Assembly: GCA_000438415.1 (NCBI GenBank)
Contig: FR902236.1
Location: 4,378-32,000, forward strand
Source of the DNA: Clostridium sp. CAG:628
GTDB lineage: Bacteria; Bacillota_I; Bacilli_A; RF39; UBA660
Reading direction: 5' to 3'
Length of the DNA stretch: 27,623 bases
Below, piece after piece: positions 1,053 through 17,173 of the stretch. The notes beneath the pieces were generated by a model. The model made no database searches, had not been told where the DNA came from, and saw only the letters and a program-made list of their open reading frames with translations. Position 1 is the first letter of the stretch. Each line of letters starts with the position of its first letter. Made by a program: the position numbers and the translations under genes.

Positions 1053-1218
1053 TATAAATATCAAAATTCACTATTTTAATAATAATTAAAGTAGTGTTTT
1101 ATATTTCTGAAAATACAATTTTTTTTCATCCAAATTTGGTAGTGAGAATAGCATGAAAAATATAAAAAATCTATATAAATAGTTTAAAATGTGTTATACT
1201 TTTGTAAGAGGTATAAAA

Positions 1219-1845
1219 ATGAAAATAAGTGAACCAAAAATTAAAAATTGTGAAGTATCTTCCTTTAATGAGTGTGTTAAAAATGAAGAATTTAATAAAG
1301 TAAAAATTAGGGAAAATAGTAGTATATCACTTGATTTAACAGATTATACATTTGACGAATGCGTTTTTGAAAATATAGATTTTTCTAATATAGAAATAAG
1401 TGATATATCTTTGATGGATGTTAAGTTTATCAACTGTGATTTATCTAATAAAAGATTTAATGATACGTTTTTAACAAGAGTTATATTTGAAAATTGTAAA
1501 TTAACAGGTCTTACTTTTATGGACTCACATTTAAAAGATATCAAAGTCACTTCTTCGGTTGGTTTATATTTGAATGTTGCATCAACAAATATAAATAATA
1601 TTGAAATAGAAGACAGTGACTTAACTGAGGCTACTTTTAATATGAGTACTTTAAATAATGTTGTTTTAAATAATGTTAATTTAACTAAATCTATATTTTT
1701 AGGATGTAATTTAAAAGATGTAGACTTTAGCACGTCTATAATTAACGGAATTAGTTTTGATATTAAGAGTTTAAATGGAATAATAATAAACAGAATGGAT
1801 GCTGGAAATATTGTGTCAATGTTTAATGTGAGAGTGAGGGACTAA
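1219..1845 (+). CDS. Pentapeptide-repeat protein, Qnr/MfpA-like (Gram-positive Qnr-like size and architecture)
   Basis: The track ORF is 1189-1845. I prefer the ATG at 1219 because AAGAGG lies 7 nt upstream. There are continuous A(D/N)LxX-type pentapeptide repeats (NCDLSNKRFNDTFLTRVIFENCKLTGLTFMDSHLKDIKV...). At ~208 aa, with a C-terminal dimerisation-like tail, it is comparable to EfsQnr-type proteins. Confidence 0.85.
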   Translation: MKISEPKIKNCEVSSFNECVKNEEFNKVKIRENSSISLDLTDYTFDECVFENIDFSNIEISDISLMDVKFINCDLSNKRFNDTFLTRVIFENCKLTGLTFMDSHLKDIKVTSSVGLYLNVASTNINNIEIEDSDLTEATFNMSTLNNVVLNNVNLTKSIFLGCNLKDVDFSTSIINGISFDIKSLNGIIINRMDAGNIVSMFNVRVRD

Positions 1846-4153: not shown

Positions 4154-4195
4154 AAAAATATAACAAAATTGTATATCTTTCTTGTTATATTTTTT
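4153..4195. terminator. Bidirectional intrinsic terminator between the convergent HD-domain and KilA-N genes
   Basis: The arms aaaaaatataacaa and ttgttatatttttt form a ~13-bp stem with a 15-nt loop, with A-runs and T-runs on either side. The stem overlaps both stop codons. Confidence 0.6.
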
Positions 4196-5060
4196 ATTTA
4201 TTTTCAATTTTCATAAATTCAGTTGTTTTAAGTTTGGTAAGATTTTCGTCATTTTCTAATATTTTCAATTGGTCTATGGCTATTTTATTTAGTTTTTCTA
4301 ACCTAGCGGATTGCGTAATTTTATCATTAATCATTGTAGCATTTATGGTTTCTAAATTACATAAAACTAAAAGTTGTCTGATATCAGCGTAGTCTCTTTG
4401 GTTTCCTTTTAATCCTTGATTTTTATCTTTCCATTCTTTTGCTGTCATACCAAATAAGGCAACATTTAGTAAATCTGCTTCAGTAGAATATGCGTGTTTT
4501 TTCTGAATATCTGTAATTAAATTAGGAACTATTGAGTTTTTTATTGCATCGGTATGTATTTTATAATTTGCTTTAGATAATACTCTACTTGCATTCCAGT
4601 CAATTTTTTCTTGATATGCTTCATTTCTTTTTAATCTTTCAAATTCTTTGATTAAGTATAACTTGAATTCTGGACTTAACCAACTTGCAAATTCTAATGC
4701 AATGTCAGAATGAGCAAATGTACCACCATTATTTCCAGATTTTGATATAATACCAATTGCATTGGTTTCTTTAATCCATTTTTGTGGTGAAATTTTAAAT
4801 TTATTACTACCTGCTTCATTTTTAAACGTGTCGAATTCGACACCTTTGAAATTTTCATTATTTAGTTTTTCCCATAACCCTAGAAATGAAATAACATCTT
4901 TATTTCTCATCCAGTTTTGTATTGGATATCTTGGTTCATCTTCATCAGCATACCTTGCTAAATCGGTTAATGATATATATTCTTCCGTGCCAATTCTAAT
5001 TACACTTACCTTGTTGTTATTAACGTTCAGTTCGCTTTTAATTAAATTATTTTTCATCAA
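4194..5060 (-). CDS. KilA-N domain-containing protein
   Basis: ORF track. The N-terminal region ISLTDLARYADEDEPRYPIQNWMRNKDVISFLGLWE...GGTFAHSDIALEFASWLSPEFKLYLIKEFERLK is the KilA-N DNA-binding domain signature, and the C-terminal half is helical. The start is TTG or ATG, with AAAGGAGG upstream. Confidence 0.8.
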   Translation of the reverse strand: MMKNNLIKSELNVNNNKVSVIRIGTEEYISLTDLARYADEDEPRYPIQNWMRNKDVISFLGLWEKLNNENFKGVEFDTFKNEAGSNKFKISPQKWIKETNAIGIISKSGNNGGTFAHSDIALEFASWLSPEFKLYLIKEFERLKRNEAYQEKIDWNASRVLSKANYKIHTDAIKNSIVPNLITDIQKKHAYSTEADLLNVALFGMTAKEWKDKNQGLKGNQRDYADIRQLLVLCNLETINATMINDKITQSARLEKLNKIAIDQLKILENDENLTKLKTTEFMKIENK

Positions 5061-9262: not shown

Positions 9263-9883
9263 TTAAAATTTTCTATAAAGTCCAATTGCAATTCCTAGTA
9301 TTTCTACTTTGTCAACTATAATTGGGTCCATTGTTTCATTTTCAGGTTGTAATCTAAAATAACCATTTTCTTTATAAAAAGTCTTTAATGTAGTGCACCC
9401 ATTTTCATCAAGTACAACTACATAGTCTCCATTTTTAGCAGTTTTTTGTCTTTTAACTATAACTATATCTCCATCATATATACCCACATTTTTCATACTC
9501 ATTCCTTCAGTTCTAAGAGTGAATACTTCTTCTTTCTTTGGTAATAAGAAAGTAGGTAATGCTATATATTCATCTGGAAATTCAATAGCCTCAATAGGAT
9601 TACCGCAAGTTACTTTTCCTAAAAGTGGAACACTTACGACATCCTCGTTCTTTTCTAAATATTCATTAGGTACTAAAACCTCTAATGTTCTAAATTTGTT
9701 ATCAGTTTGTTTTAAATAACCTTTATTCATTAAGTGCTTCATATGAACGAATACAGTAGCAGTACTACTTAAATTCATAAGGTCACAAACTTCTCTTACA
9801 CTTGGACTATATCCATGTTCTGCTATATACTTTTTAATAACAGTTAAAACTTCTTGTTGCTTTCTAGTTAACTTTTCCATCAT
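9263..9883 (-). CDS. lexA: LexA repressor (SOS regulator, S24 autopeptidase)
   Basis: The N-terminal winged HTH reads LTRKQQEVLTVIKKYIAEHGYSPSVREVCDLMNLSSTATVFVHMKHLMNKGYL. The C-terminal S24 domain has GMSM (catalytic Ser) and DGDIVIVKRQ (catalytic Lys region). The 206-aa length fits, and there is an SD (AAGGAAG). Confidence 0.92.
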   Translation of the reverse strand: MMEKLTRKQQEVLTVIKKYIAEHGYSPSVREVCDLMNLSSTATVFVHMKHLMNKGYLKQTDNKFRTLEVLVPNEYLEKNEDVVSVPLLGKVTCGNPIEAIEFPDEYIALPTFLLPKKEEVFTLRTEGMSMKNVGIYDGDIVIVKRQKTAKNGDYVVVLDENGCTTLKTFYKENGYFRLQPENETMDPIIVDKVEILGIAIGLYRKF

Positions 9884-9905
9884 AACACTTCCTTTCTAAA
9901 TATAT

Positions 9906-9932
9906 ATTATCACACAAAATATTATTTGTCAA
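9906..9932 (-). promoter_or_regulatory. Candidate lexA promoter
   Basis: On the minus strand: TTGACA (9927-9932), 15 nt, TGtGATAAT (extended -10, GATAAT at 9906-9911). Confidence 0.4.
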
Positions 9933-10021
9933 ACAATTTATCGATTTTGATATAAAATATTTCCATAACTGTTCGCTTAACATACAAATGTAAATTCGCC
10001 AAACATTTTATTGTTTTTATA

Positions 10022-10050
10022 TTGACACAAACATCTATGTGTTATAAAAT
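10022..10050 (+). promoter_or_regulatory. Strong sigma-A promoter divergent from lexA, driving the small membrane-peptide gene
   Basis: TTGACA (10022-10027), 17 nt, TAAAAT (10045-10050). The alternative is TGtTATAAA as an extended -10. The SD and ATG follow 20-30 nt downstream. Confidence 0.55.
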
Positions 10051-10076
10051 GGTATCACAAAGAAGGAGAGTGTATT

Positions 10077-10229
10077 ATGGAAAAATTGGAAAAAATATTT
10101 AATAGTAAGTTAGGAATAGTATTATTTTATATAGTAATTGCTATACTAGCACTTATGCTTACAAAGAAAGTAGAAGTTATAAATAATAACTCTCAGTCGG
10201 TTAAAACTGTTGAAAGTTGTTATGCATAA
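10077..10229 (+). CDS. Small single-pass membrane protein (50 aa), not in the ORF track; candidate SOS-linked cell-division inhibitor by position
   Basis: The SD AAGGAGAG lies 7 nt before the ATG at 10077. The product is MEKLEKIFNSKLGIVLFYIVIAILALMLTKKVEVINNNSQSVKTVESCYA: a short N-tail, one ~19-aa hydrophobic helix flanked by Lys residues, and a 20-aa polar C-tail. It is divergent from lexA and has its own consensus promoter. Confidence 0.55.
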   Translation: MEKLEKIFNSKLGIVLFYIVIAILALMLTKKVEVINNNSQSVKTVESCYA

Positions 10230-10290
10230 CTTTTTTCTTTTAAATATTTATATTTGATGATATAATATATCTCACGAATGGGGGATTAAT

Positions 10291-11130
10291 ATGTTTTCTA
10301 AAGAATTGTTTTATTATATTTTAAATGAAATTAATAATAAAGACTTTTTAACAGAAGAATTTTTAGGTCATGTAAAAGAACTAATTATTAAATATAATAG
10401 AGATATGAAGTATGTACTTAATGAAATTATAGTAAATGAAACATCTAATATAGATTCATACTATTTAGAAAACAATATTATTTTAGCAAGTACTTCAATA
10501 GATAGTGATTATAAAGTGTTACTTAGTGAACACGAGGATATAAAAGACACACTTTTTGTATATAATTTAAATATATTAGATACTTTAATTCATGAACTAA
10601 CTCATGCTTATCAGGAATATTTATCTCTTAGTAGAAATACTTTATTCACTAGAATTATGAAAGATGGAGATAATGTACAAAGTGGGAAATTTAAATATAA
10701 AAAAAGTTTATTAAACTATTTACCAAAAGAAGTAAGAGGAAGAGTCTTTTACTGTGAACATCATGACATCATGCCATTTGAATTACACGCTAATAATGTG
10801 GCTAGTATGTATTGTCTAAAGGTGTATCAAGAAATGAAAAACTTAACAGATATTCCATCATATGAAAGTATTGTACTTGATGACTATTTAAAAGAATATA
10901 GTTTTGAAAATGAAATAACAAATCCATTAACTAAATTTTATATATATTCTAATACATTAGATATAATGAATAGTCATAATTTAAAAAATCTTTCTAGTAG
11001 AAATAAATTCTTATTAGGCTATTTGAGAACTGCTTTAGAAATAAATGAAACTTTTAATAAAGTAATGAATACAAAAAACTTGGATTATGTTCGTATTTAT
11101 AAGAATGGAAGTGTTTACAAAAATGAATAA
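10291..11130 (+). CDS. Hypothetical protein with an HExxH zinc-metallopeptidase-like motif
   Basis: ORF track, SD GGGGGA. The only recognisable feature is LDTLIHELTHAYQEY (HExxH with hydrophobic context), plus a later CEHHD...ELH cluster. I cannot assign a family. An extended -10 (TGATATAAT) lies ~35 nt upstream. Confidence 0.5.
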   Translation: MFSKELFYYILNEINNKDFLTEEFLGHVKELIIKYNRDMKYVLNEIIVNETSNIDSYYLENNIILASTSIDSDYKVLLSEHEDIKDTLFVYNLNILDTLIHELTHAYQEYLSLSRNTLFTRIMKDGDNVQSGKFKYKKSLLNYLPKEVRGRVFYCEHHDIMPFELHANNVASMYCLKVYQEMKNLTDIPSYESIVLDDYLKEYSFENEITNPLTKFYIYSNTLDIMNSHNLKNLSSRNKFLLGYLRTALEINETFNKVMNTKNLDYVRIYKNGSVYKNE

Positions 11131-11170: not shown

Positions 11171-13084
11171 ATGGATATGAAAATTATTAATTCTCTTAGA
11201 AGTTTAGGAATAGATATGATTAATAGTAGATTAGAAGGAGATGCAGGACTAACAATTAGTTTAGCGCCAACTATATATACATTATTTAGTAAACATTTAA
11301 ATTTTAGTAGTAGTGAACCAACTTGGATAAATAGAGATAGATTTATTTTATCAACTAGTAGTGCTTCACCGCTACTTTATAGTACACTTTTTTATGCAGG
11401 TTATCCTATTAGAGAAGAAGAATTAAAGTGTTTTGGTAGCAGCAAGCTTTCTATATATCCAGAATATAACCCTAAAGTTGGAATAAATTCTTCAACTGGA
11501 ATTTATGCTGAAGGATTAAGTGTGTCTGTAGGAATAGCGCTTGCTGAAAAGTATTTAAGAAGTATTTTAGGAAGAGATTTAATTAATTTTTATACATATG
11601 TAATGGTAAGTGATAACGAGTTTATGTCAGGAGATACATTTGAAAGTTTGGAATTAGCAAGTAATAATGAACTAAGTCACTTAATAATTTTATATAATAG
11701 TTTTGAAACAACTATTAATGGTAAAAAGAGTAATTATTTAAAAGAAAATCATTTAAAAGTATATGAAGACTTGGGTTTTCATATTGAAACTGTTACTAAT
11801 GCAGAAGACTTTCTAAGTATTGATAAAGCTATTACAAGGGCTAAATTATCTAATAAACCTAGTATTATTGAAATAAAAAGTTTAATAGCTTTGGGAACTA
11901 GTTTACAAGGAAGTTATAAAGGCCACAATAGCGTGCTTACTGATGAAGATATAATGCTTGTAAAAGAAAAAATGAATTTAACAAAAGTACCTTTTCATAT
12001 ATCAGCAAATGCTATTACTGAGTTTCAAAGTATGATTAGTACTAGAACAAATCCTGTGTATAACGAATGGGTTAGTAGATATAATAAAGTAATAGAAACA
12101 GATGAAAAAATGAAGGGGATTCTTAGTTTATTAGAAGAAGATAATTTAAGAATAAATATTAAGAATATGAAAGTCAACTTTGATGCATCTATGAAAGAAG
12201 ATATGTTAGAAACTAATAATAATTTGATGAGTGCAATAAGTCAAGTAAATCCATTAATGGTAACTTGTTCACTATTTAATGATAATAAAAACTTTGGTTT
12301 AAAAGGTGATAAAAACTTTGATTTTGGTAATAGAATTTCTTCTTGTTTTAATGTAAGTATTGGTTTTTCCTTAACAGGGTTAAAGCCTATAATATGTACT
12401 AACTTAGTAAGTGTTAGTAAAGTATGTGAACAAATTAAATTAGCTAGTTTAATGAAACTACCTATAACTTATATATTTACTAATGATTCACTACTTAGTT
12501 CAAATAAAAATATGTTATTAATGCCAATAAATGAATTATCAATATTAAGAAGCATTCCTATGCTTTCTGTTATAAAACCTGCTGATGTTAATGAACTAGT
12601 AGGATGTTACGACTTTATTATAAATAAGAAGCTTCCAACAGCATTAGTCTTGCCTTCAGTTAAAAAAGGACTTATTCCAAATACTAATGCTTCAAACACA
12701 TTGAAAGGTGCATACATAATTAGACCTGAGGGAGGAAGACTTTCTGGTATACTTGTTTCTTCTGGTAATGAAGTAGAAACTGCTTTAAGAATAAATGAAG
12801 AATTAATAAATAGAGGAATATTTACTAGGGTAGTATCAGTACCTAGTATAAGTTTATTTGATAAAGAGAGTAAAGAATATAAAGATACATTGTTTCCAAT
12901 AGGTGCTAAAGTTGTAGTAATCGAGCCATCTAATGATGAACATTGGAATAAATTTGTTTATAATGAGAAATATTTAATTAATGTTAAAGACTATGTTATA
13001 AGTGGTAAAAATACAGAGATATTAACTGCTTGTGGATTTGATTTTGATAGTTTATTAGAAAAAATAGAAAAATTATTAAAATAG
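11171..13084 (+). CDS. Transketolase-family protein with degenerate cofactor and catalytic motifs (probable pseudoenzyme)
   Basis: It is collinear with transketolase over its full 637-aa length (WINRDRFILS, LLYSTLFYAGY, VGIALAEKYL, KPSIIEIKSLIALGT, GSYKGHNSVL, PTALVLPS, RVVSVPSISLFD). The canonical SGHPG, GHGS, GDG...N, GGSADL, REH and THDS.G.GEDGPTHQ motifs are all replaced (see findings). TGTTATAAT extended -10 and an SD lie upstream. Confidence 0.8.
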   Translation: MDMKIINSLRSLGIDMINSRLEGDAGLTISLAPTIYTLFSKHLNFSSSEPTWINRDRFILSTSSASPLLYSTLFYAGYPIREEELKCFGSSKLSIYPEYNPKVGINSSTGIYAEGLSVSVGIALAEKYLRSILGRDLINFYTYVMVSDNEFMSGDTFESLELASNNELSHLIILYNSFETTINGKKSNYLKENHLKVYEDLGFHIETVTNAEDFLSIDKAITRAKLSNKPSIIEIKSLIALGTSLQGSYKGHNSVLTDEDIMLVKEKMNLTKVPFHISANAITEFQSMISTRTNPVYNEWVSRYNKVIETDEKMKGILSLLEEDNLRINIKNMKVNFDASMKEDMLETNNNLMSAISQVNPLMVTCSLFNDNKNFGLKGDKNFDFGNRISSCFNVSIGFSLTGLKPIICTNLVSVSKVCEQIKLASLMKLPITYIFTNDSLLSSNKNMLLMPINELSILRSIPMLSVIKPADVNELVGCYDFIINKKLPTALVLPSVKKGLIPNTNASNTLKGAYIIRPEGGRLSGILVSSGNEVETALRINEELINRGIFTRVVSVPSISLFDKESKEYKDTLFPIGAKVVVIEPSNDEHWNKFVYNEKYLINVKDYVISGKNTEILTACGFDFDSLLEKIEKLLK

Positions 13085-17031: not shown

Positions 17032-17045
17032 ATTCTCTATTTTTT
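17017..17045 (+). terminator. ileS intrinsic terminator
   Basis: atagagaa (17017-17024) pairs with ttctctat (17033-17040) around an 8-nt loop, followed by TTTTT. Confidence 0.6.
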
Positions 17046-17061
17046 AATACCAAACAAACTA

Positions 17062-17090
17062 TTAACGAACATATATACTTATGATAAAAT
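17062..17090 (+). promoter_or_regulatory. Candidate addBA promoter with an embedded CGAAC (LexA half-box-like) element
   Basis: TTAACG (17062-17067), 17 nt, TAAAAT (17085-17090) preceded by TGa. The spacer begins CGAACATATATACT (17066-17079). Confidence 0.4.
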
Positions 17091-17173
17091 CAAAATGTAC
17101 AAAGGAAAAGAAAGTAAGTGACTTTAAAGAATTTATATAATATAATTGAATTAGTGTAAAAGGAAGTGAAAGA

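Follow-up and report, generated by a model that had tools for sequence, protein, structure and literature searches.

A small gene of 50 codons (10077 to 10229, plus strand) was found divergent from lexA in a stretch of Clostridium sp. CAG:628 DNA, i.e., 27,623 nucleotides (nt) of contig FR902236.1, which is called the window here. Its product, a predicted single-pass membrane protein of 50 amino acids (aa; MEKLEKIFNSKLGIVLFYIVIAILALMLTKKVEVINNNSQSVKTVESCYA), is proposed as an inhibitor of cell division which is induced in the SOS response and acts in the manner of YneA and SosA. A probability of about 55% is assigned to this reading, which follows the precedent of the characterised lexA-divergent membrane proteins. 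The sequence-only reading, an earlier examination of the same DNA, had named the gene a positional analog of YneA and SosA. This was borne out by a conserved open reading frame (ORF), a conserved promoter box, a motif shared with the lexA promoter, and the synteny lexA <> X > tkt. The coordinates given for the 50-aa ORF, its divergent orientation from lexA, and the transketolase (tkt) homolog at 11171 were all reproduced. The ORF had also been described as unannotated, which holds for the product, i.e., it carries no name or family, but gene callers do call the exact 50-aa protein.

Relatives were collected by a LexA-based scan with one genome per species, which gave 80 loci. The first 44 of these loci make up the clade of the window. 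They belong to uncultured gut 'Bacilli' known as metagenome-assembled genomes (MAGs), including Candidatus Onthocola (listed as Bacilli incertae sedis), and their LexA proteins are 56-92% identical to that of the window. In the lexA-divergent slot, an ORF of 36-53 aa with one hydrophobic helix was found in 41 of the 44 clade loci, and its start is placed 110-135 nt from the lexA start codon. The exceptions were L019, which has a tRNA-like sequence beside the lexA operator, L037, where the contig ends, and L043, a Lachnospiraceae outlier with a larger ORF (125-165 aa). Some of the MAGs (L006, L026, L037, L040, and L021) are recorded as 'Muribaculaceae' or 'Mycoplasma sp.', which are probably mis-assigned bin taxonomies. 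The sequence-only reading had suggested aligning the lexA-divergent regions of relatives, and both the small transmembrane (TM) ORF (41/44) and the operator-like box described below (42/42 promoters) were conserved in that alignment.

The members in the far half of the clade share as little as 13-30% protein identity with the window, although their length and architecture stay constant. For the 13 nearest sequences, mean pS (synonymous) was 0.62 and mean pN (nonsynonymous) was 0.33, pN was lower than pS in 77 of 78 pairs, and omega was approximately 0.16-0.7. By these codon comparisons, the small gene is under purifying selection. A profile search of 5.8 billion proteins returned 125 clusters at 90% identity, all of them unnamed or 'hypothetical' and without any Pfam domain, and an exhaustive HMMER search of 1.84 billion representatives returned 226 clusters at 50% identity, nearly all with 43-60 aa. 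Gene calls for the exact window protein were present on contigs as long as approximately 300 kb, including a Hadza gut sample, and the index placed it in 3971 blocks of the collection. Longer database entries of 60-85 aa were considered as forms with a TM helix plus a domain. They were retrieved and read, and this was ruled out, i.e., the entries were upstream-start or frame artefacts.

In domain searches, the small protein reached 22.6 bits with the Pfam model MpPF26, below the cut-off of 37.2. In NCBIfam only scattered, TM-driven matches and no meaningful family were obtained, and the PHROGs hit, phrog_3751 at E = 0.008, was not meaningful. A decayed yneA or a spurious ORF was rejected because of the constant length, the purifying selection, and the hundreds of clusters. 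It is nearly certain that the small gene is real. As far as these searches reach, it belongs to an undescribed gene family without detectable similarity to YneA.

The right border of the slot is conserved and is formed by tkt (11171 to 13084, plus strand), assigned by Pfam and synteny. In most clade members tkt comes directly after the small gene, and lexA <> small gene > tkt is, judged by gene order, the ancestral arrangement in the clade. In other relatives, unrelated sequences are inserted instead, which looked signal peptidase- and glycosyltransferase-like by eye. The order in B. subtilis, lexA <> yneA-yneB-ynzC > tkt, and that in the fetched loci of the cultured Carnobacterium and Alkalibacterium, lexA <> ynzC-like > tkt, match that of the clade, and the small gene therefore occupies the yneA slot. 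Among the fetched loci, the slot is filled in the more distant Firmicutes by ORFs of approximately 100-165 aa that contain a hydrophobic segment. These larger ORFs were read by eye as YneA-like, and in L076 and L078 a LysM-like 'KKGDTVWEIA / KNGQTLWQIV' stretch was seen, again judged by eye.

The slot does not dictate function, because the Lactobacillales keep a YnzC-like gene there, which is not a membrane protein. The small protein may thus be a LexA-regulated membrane protein with another role, for example in modulating a membrane protease, a transporter, or a sporulation or germination checkpoint, and without a direct effect on division. Two points agree with such a role: no homology of the family to a characterised inhibitor was detected, and the host is a spore-former. 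The host is considered a walled, spore-forming, low-G+C member of Bacillota because FemAB and GerA/GerAC/spore permease genes are present in the window. However, no conserved partner gene is adjacent, as the downstream genes vary, and the characterised lexA-divergent single-pass membrane proteins of Gram-positives, i.e., YneA, SosA, ChiZ, and DivS, are all inhibitors of division (PMC6851548). Another role without division inhibition is considered unlikely.

The region between lexA and the small gene is 193 nt long in the window. The small-gene promoter (10022 to 10050, plus strand) has the -35 element TTGACA (10022-10027), a 17-nt spacer, and the -10 element TAAAAT (10045-10050), which agree with the consensus at 11 of 12 positions. 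Promoter-like sites in the region were fewer than in shuffled sequences (11 vs 18.1). The Shine-Dalgarno (SD) sequence, AAGGAGAG (10063 to 10070, plus strand), has its GGAG end 8 nt from the ATG, and a GGAG-type SD is found at equal distance from the start in the relatives. The near-consensus promoter and the strong SD claimed earlier were both found in their places.

The promoters of 41 relatives were aligned with that of the window (n = 42). In all 42, the -35 element is followed immediately by C(G/A)AAC-N4-(A/G)T(T/A)(C/T)G, then 3 nt, and then the -10 element. The -35 element is exactly TTGACA in 36 of the 42, with T1, T2, and A4 invariant. In the left half-site of the box, C1, A3, A4, and C5 are invariant in 42/42 and position 2 is G or A. 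The sequence upstream of -35 and downstream of -10 is variable. In the window, the LexA-box-like operator CAAACATCTATGTG (box C, 10028 to 10041, plus strand) fills the promoter spacer right after the -35 element; it is a degenerate ortholog of the clade box, two substitutions away from L007 and likewise from L010. The box of the window's sub-clade reads C(G/A)AAC-N4-ATATG. A canonical Cheo box over the promoter had not been seen by the sequence-only reading, and a search of the intergenic region for GAAC-N4-GTTC with up to one mismatch also gave no match. That reading had missed the degenerate Cheo-type box that fills the spacer.

The lexA gene (9263 to 9883, minus strand) encodes 206 aa with the winged-helix DNA-binding domain LexA_DNA_bind (PF01726, 5e-21) and the S24 autopeptidase domain Peptidase_S24 (PF00717, 1.5e-28) in Pfam. 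Its promoter (9904 to 9932, minus strand) has -35 TTGACA (9932-9927), a 17-nt spacer, and -10 TAATAT (9909-9904), i.e., 10 of 12 consensus positions with TG before the -10, and the layout is the same in the relatives. The LexA-box-like site B1, CAAACAATTTATCG (9930 to 9943, plus strand), a putative autoregulation site, overlaps this -35 element and scores 12.1 bits with the clade matrix. It is orthologous to CAAAC-N4-GTTT(A/T) or CAAAC-N4-TTWYG in the relatives. When the lexA promoters were aligned, the far group showed CAAAC-AAAT-GTTT(A/T) and the near group CAAAC-N4-TT(T/A/G)(C/T)G, each of them lying over the lexA -35 on the opposite strand. A weaker box-like site, A1 (CAAAATATTATTTG, 9915 to 9928, plus strand; 7.3 and 9.1 bits), lies in the lexA promoter spacer, where the near relatives have AAAAC-GTAC-ATTTG.

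Across 424 kb of clade loci, a matrix built from the small-gene sites alone gave 55 matches with a score of 13 bits or higher. These were confined to lexA intergenic regions, with none elsewhere, and 14 of the 55 were sites at lexA's own promoter, which had not been used for training. With the near-relative matrix, box C scores 11.9 bits, and approximately 1.1 such sites are expected per window on both strands, or approximately 2e-5 per position. With the whole-clade matrix, the window has eight sites of at least 7 bits, a number equal to that in shuffles, and 4/8 fall within 130 nt of intergenic region. Judged on these sequences, a palindrome-like element common to two divergent promoters, one of them lexA's own, is the classical signature of LexA autoregulation with a co-regulated target.

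The conserved gene could instead be free of LexA control, and CRAAC would then either serve the promoter, for instance as an extended -35 or a UP-like contact, or be bound by a different regulator. This fits a right half-site that is weak (ATATG or ATGTG) both in the window and in its near relatives, the lack of a canonical Cheo box in the intergenic region, and the diverged recognition helix of the clade LexA. The helix reads SSTATVFVHM(K/R)HL or NSPATVFVHIKNL with the wing NKFRT(L/I)E, whereas canonical Bacilli have SSTSTVHGHLARL with the wing KPRAIE. However, C(A/G)AAC-N4-NTTYG also overlaps lexA's -35, where it lies on the other strand and differs in register, and a pure promoter-architecture element is therefore insufficient. 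Further, distant members of the clade have near-canonical Cheo boxes (L041 CGAACATTTGTTTG, L040 CAAACTTTTGTTTG, L023 CGAACGAATATTCG), and the motif is confined to lexA intergenic regions. A gene outside LexA control is accordingly rated very improbable. In the window's sub-clade, both operators lost the right-half G (GTTYG to WTWYG), and the recognition helix and the two operators may have drifted together toward an asymmetric CRAAC-N4-WTWYG. We infer LexA repression with good support, because the box is in all 42 promoters, the same motif is at the lexA -35, and the motif is confined as described. With fairly high confidence, the small gene is taken to be LexA-controlled.

Elsewhere in the window, the best match to the clade LexA-box matrix, CGAACATATATACT (14.7 bits), was found at 17066-17079 in the gap between ileS and the addB-like gene (17032-17173). 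This match overlaps a promoter, TTAACG-17-TAAAAT, which has TG ahead of its -10 and precedes the addB-like (PD-(D/E)XK) and addA-like (UvrD) ORFs. Other strains read TTGACAAACATATATACT at this site, but the metagenome scan returned almost solely the same species. In L098 (40% identity), the only distant relative fetched, the site was not present. It is possibly a second LexA target.

The lexA promoter/operator segment was found to be tandemly duplicated in the window by sequence comparison (plus strand), with the first copy at 9907-9948 and the distal copy at 9977 to 10018. The proximal copy keeps a functional-looking TTGACA-17-TAATAT, and the -35 of the distal copy is decayed (TGTCAA to CGCCAA). 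The distal copy contains two box-like sites, CAAATGTAAATTCG (9985-9998) and CAAACATTTTATTG (10000-10013). It is nearer than the proximal copy to the single copy of L001, and on this comparison it is the one closer to the ancestral sequence. The alignment suggests that the duplication unit reaches the first codons of lexA. The duplication is not present in L001-L014, whose intergenic regions are approximately 70 nt shorter, and an intergenic length of 196 nt suggests that the same-species contigs L081-L084 carry it too. Two elements of the sequence-only reading fall in this region. The degenerate element CAAATGTAAATTCG is present, and its counterpart in the relatives is a box-like element which is conserved in the spacer of their lexA promoters. 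The CGAAC half-site is also present (GTTCG, 9971-9975), but it lies in the junction of the window-specific duplication and has no counterpart in the relatives; it was rejected because it is not conserved.

In the small protein, the best 18-residue hydrophobic window covers residues 12-29 (mean Kyte-Doolittle 2.85), with an N-terminal tail of 11 aa and a C-terminal tail of 21 aa. The tail from residue 30 to 50 is polar and ends in CYA. AlphaFold2 with the family alignment gave one continuous helix over residues 11-47, with a predicted local distance difference test (pLDDT) score of 88-93 in the membrane part and a lower score in the tail. The short N-terminal tail, single TM helix, and polar tail of approximately 20 aa described earlier are thus supported by hydropathy and by the model. 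Family members have a median length of 46 aa (range 44-52), a TM helix starting at about residue 10, an N-terminal tail with a net charge of +3, and a C-terminal tail of approximately 19 residues with a net charge of 0. This difference in charge favours a single-pass topology with the N-terminus inside and the C-terminus outside.

The most conserved positions, in window numbering, are G13, Y18, and R/K31, of which R/K31 is juxtamembrane, where the TM helix ends on the outside. Immediately past the helix, the far group, of which MLEVLKKYSGIILFYLVIVGMVFLINSRFSELNEGDEVITVALSE is a member, has N-x-R-F-x-x-L-N, and the near group has T-K-K-I-E-x-I-N and an invariant terminal Y-Y-A, which is C-Y-A in the window. 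The terminal YYA/CYA was kept in the window and in all 12 near relatives aligned. No LysM domain was found in the window protein, and no Pfam domain was found in any family member.

The main rival to division inhibition is an SOS-induced membrane toxin of the TisB/DinQ type. Such a toxin would cause depolarisation, lower ATP, and dormancy or tolerance after damage, and would not act on the divisome. In E. coli, TisB and DinQ are established examples of type I toxins under LexA control. The small protein falls in the same size class (45-51 aa) with one TM helix and a LexA-type promoter box, and no extracellular domain was recognisable in it by Pfam and NCBIfam. A long, structured leader is typical of type I toxin mRNAs, whereas the leader of the small gene has only approximately 20 nt with a strong, exposed SD. 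No promoter-like site was found on the minus strand in 10077-10290, although this is a weak test by consensus scan only. Toxin loci are more often multi-copy and mobile, but the small gene is single copy and fixed in the yneA/sosA slot across the clade. In addition, the conservation of both the polar tail and the juxtamembrane motif suggests a specific partner. A membrane toxin is considered quite unlikely on these grounds.

For the mechanism of a division inhibitor, we infer LexA binding, damage induction, the membrane topology, the division target, and a turnover step, as follows. A strong sigma-A promoter would drive the small gene, which would be off in undamaged cells because a LexA operator occupies the 17-nt promoter spacer. 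On DNA damage, RecA-stimulated self-cleavage of LexA would turn on the small gene together with lexA. The peptide would enter the membrane with its short basic N-terminal tail in the cytoplasm, one TM helix, and an outside tail of approximately 20 residues which continues the helix. It would then block division transiently, with the TM helix docking on the septal peptidoglycan synthase, i.e., TM7 of FtsW in the current model, and with the juxtamembrane or C-terminal tail interfering with septal wall synthesis. An extracytoplasmic protease would clear the peptide afterwards, and the conserved YYA (CYA in the window) is a candidate degron. By analogy with the turnover of SosA and YneA, the C-terminus could be where CtpA/YlbL-like extracytoplasmic proteases of the PDZ type recognise the peptide.

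Several results weigh against this proposal. With the whole-clade matrix, box C has only 8.1 bits, a score expected by chance across the whole window, and its right half ATGTG matches GTTCG at only 2/5 positions. The divergence of the clade LexA recognition helix from canonical Bacilli makes the binding specificity uncertain, and in the near group it may have shifted. L019 has no small gene, with the tRNA-like sequence in the slot, and the gene is therefore dispensable there. The link to YneA was tested with a hidden Markov model (HMM) of 101 family members against the six-frame ORFs of all 80 fetched loci, and no significant match outside the family was found in the fetched Firmicutes loci (best E = 0.38). 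The NCBIfam YneA model NF010723 matched 3/37 family members with a best E of 0.013, a likely TM-driven match which was not shown to reach the curated cut-off. By these two results, no homology to YneA is detectable. Moreover, the TM helix of B. subtilis YneA alone goes to the septum without inhibiting, and the LysM domain is required (PMC13396833). The 20-residue tail of the small protein would therefore have to act differently.

A weak A/U-rich hairpin (10212-10234) lies over the stop codon of the small gene and is followed by TTCTTTT (10212 to 10241, plus strand; RNA fold). It is a possible weak intrinsic terminator, but the terminator scan reported none after the small gene. In L006, L008, L016, L017, L020, L024, and L038, clear hairpin and T-run terminators were found at the matching place. 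The small gene is likely transcribed as a mono-cistronic unit.

The next ORF (10291 to 11130, plus strand) encodes 279 aa with a HELTH (HExxH-like) motif and has its own TG-extended promoter (10239-10266). No family was found for it in Pfam, NCBIfam, or PHROG scans. It is missing in the relatives with tkt directly after the small gene and in the sister species, and it is a lineage-specific insertion that separates the small gene from tkt. Because it has no family and is absent from the relatives, it probably does not belong to the small-gene unit and was not counted in it.

The window has a G+C content of 25%. Downstream of tkt, a lipoprotein-like ORF was found, and further on ileS, the addB/addA-like pair, and genes for a C39-ABC exporter and FemAB. 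On the other side, upstream of lexA, there is a gerA-type germination operon (GerA/GerAC/spore permease genes). To the left of this operon, a KilA-N domain protein (4194-5060, minus strand) and a pentapeptide-repeat protein (1189-1845, plus strand) are encoded, and the KilA-N gene may mark a mobile-element remnant. The same-species contigs L081-L084 (230-300 kb) encode an identical 50-aa protein. Beyond lexA they carry an MMPL transporter and unnamed ORFs of 43 aa and 506-547 aa, and no gerA operon. The left flank of lexA is strain-variable, since these contigs differ there from the window.

The Gram-positive SOS division inhibitors are sequence-unrelated solutions to one problem, and each new family tests whether their targets converge, as in the proposal of FtsW TM7 (PMC13396833). 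It is tentatively suggested, with more doubt than confidence, that the gene represents an undescribed family which is spread widely among gut Bacilli and comprises approximately 226 clusters at 50% identity. Its members would be LysM-less, SOS-induced division inhibitors of 44-52 residues, in which one TM helix and a helical extension of approximately 20 residues are enough to stop FtsW-dependent septal synthesis. If this is true, the small protein would be the smallest Gram-positive checkpoint effector and a minimal natural FtsW inhibitor. Peptidoglycan binding would be dispensable, and the inhibitory determinant would be the TM helix with a short juxtamembrane extension. Such a peptide would be useful for studies on FtsW regulation and for the design of peptide inhibitors. 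The proposal also gives a testable role to a 'hypothetical protein' listed in the 3971 collection blocks, human-gut contigs included, from a poorly known lineage of uncultured spore-forming Bacilli. For Firmicutes, the general idea of a lexA-divergent small TM protein is textbook knowledge, and specialists would find the gene interesting but not surprising.

Among the known systems, TisB (29 aa) and DinQ (27 aa) of E. coli are LexA-regulated type I toxins which have an antisense RNA and a structured leader and act by depolarisation. Like them, the small protein is a membrane peptide of less than 60 aa with a LexA-type promoter box. Unlike at their loci, no antisense promoter or long leader was detected at the small gene.

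SidA of Caulobacter crescentus is a LexA-regulated inner-membrane division inhibitor of 29 aa, and YneA has about 105 aa. SidA is SOS-induced and acts late on FtsW/FtsN, not on FtsZ, and the small protein resembles it as a very small single-TM peptide. However, SidA is Gram-negative, is not encoded beside lexA, has essentially no extracytoplasmic tail, and is unrelated in sequence. The sequence-only reading expected the small protein to be smaller than the known members, which is correct for the Gram-positive SosA (77 aa) and YneA but does not hold for SidA.

The small gene has the same position as yneA of B. subtilis and Listeria, i.e., the slot between divergent lexA and tkt. Its product, like YneA, is predicted to have a single TM helix with the C-terminus outside. 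YneA has a LexA box in its promoter, and the small gene appears to have a LexA-type box there. In contrast to YneA, the small protein has no LysM domain and half the length, and no yneB or ynzC is found downstream. The TM helix of YneA binds TM7 of FtsW, and in AlphaFold 3 models FtsW is also the docking partner of SosA, ChiZ, and SidA, with low confidence (PMC13396833). By analogy, YneA and the small protein likely share their target logic, i.e., docking of the TM helix on FtsW.

No Pfam or NCBIfam model linked the small protein to SosA, and the two are set apart by description, their sequences not having been compared directly. SosA of Staphylococcus aureus is a LexA-controlled protein of 77 aa, which is encoded divergently from lexA and has one N-terminal TM helix, the C-terminus outside, and no LysM domain (PMC6851548). 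Its strongest conservation is just C-terminal of the TM helix, and its conserved extreme C-terminus is tied to proteolytic turnover (PMC6851548). The tail was predicted as an extension of the TM helix and proposed to disturb the catalytic cavity of FtsW (PMC13396833). The small protein differs from SosA in length (50 vs 77 aa), in the outside tail (approximately 20 vs 47 residues), and in its hosts, which are uncultured gut Bacilli and not staphylococci. Both are lexA-divergent and without LysM. In both, conservation is seen next to the membrane and at the extreme C-terminus, and the TM helix is predicted to extend into the tail. From this comparison, the small protein looks like a shortened SosA-type design.

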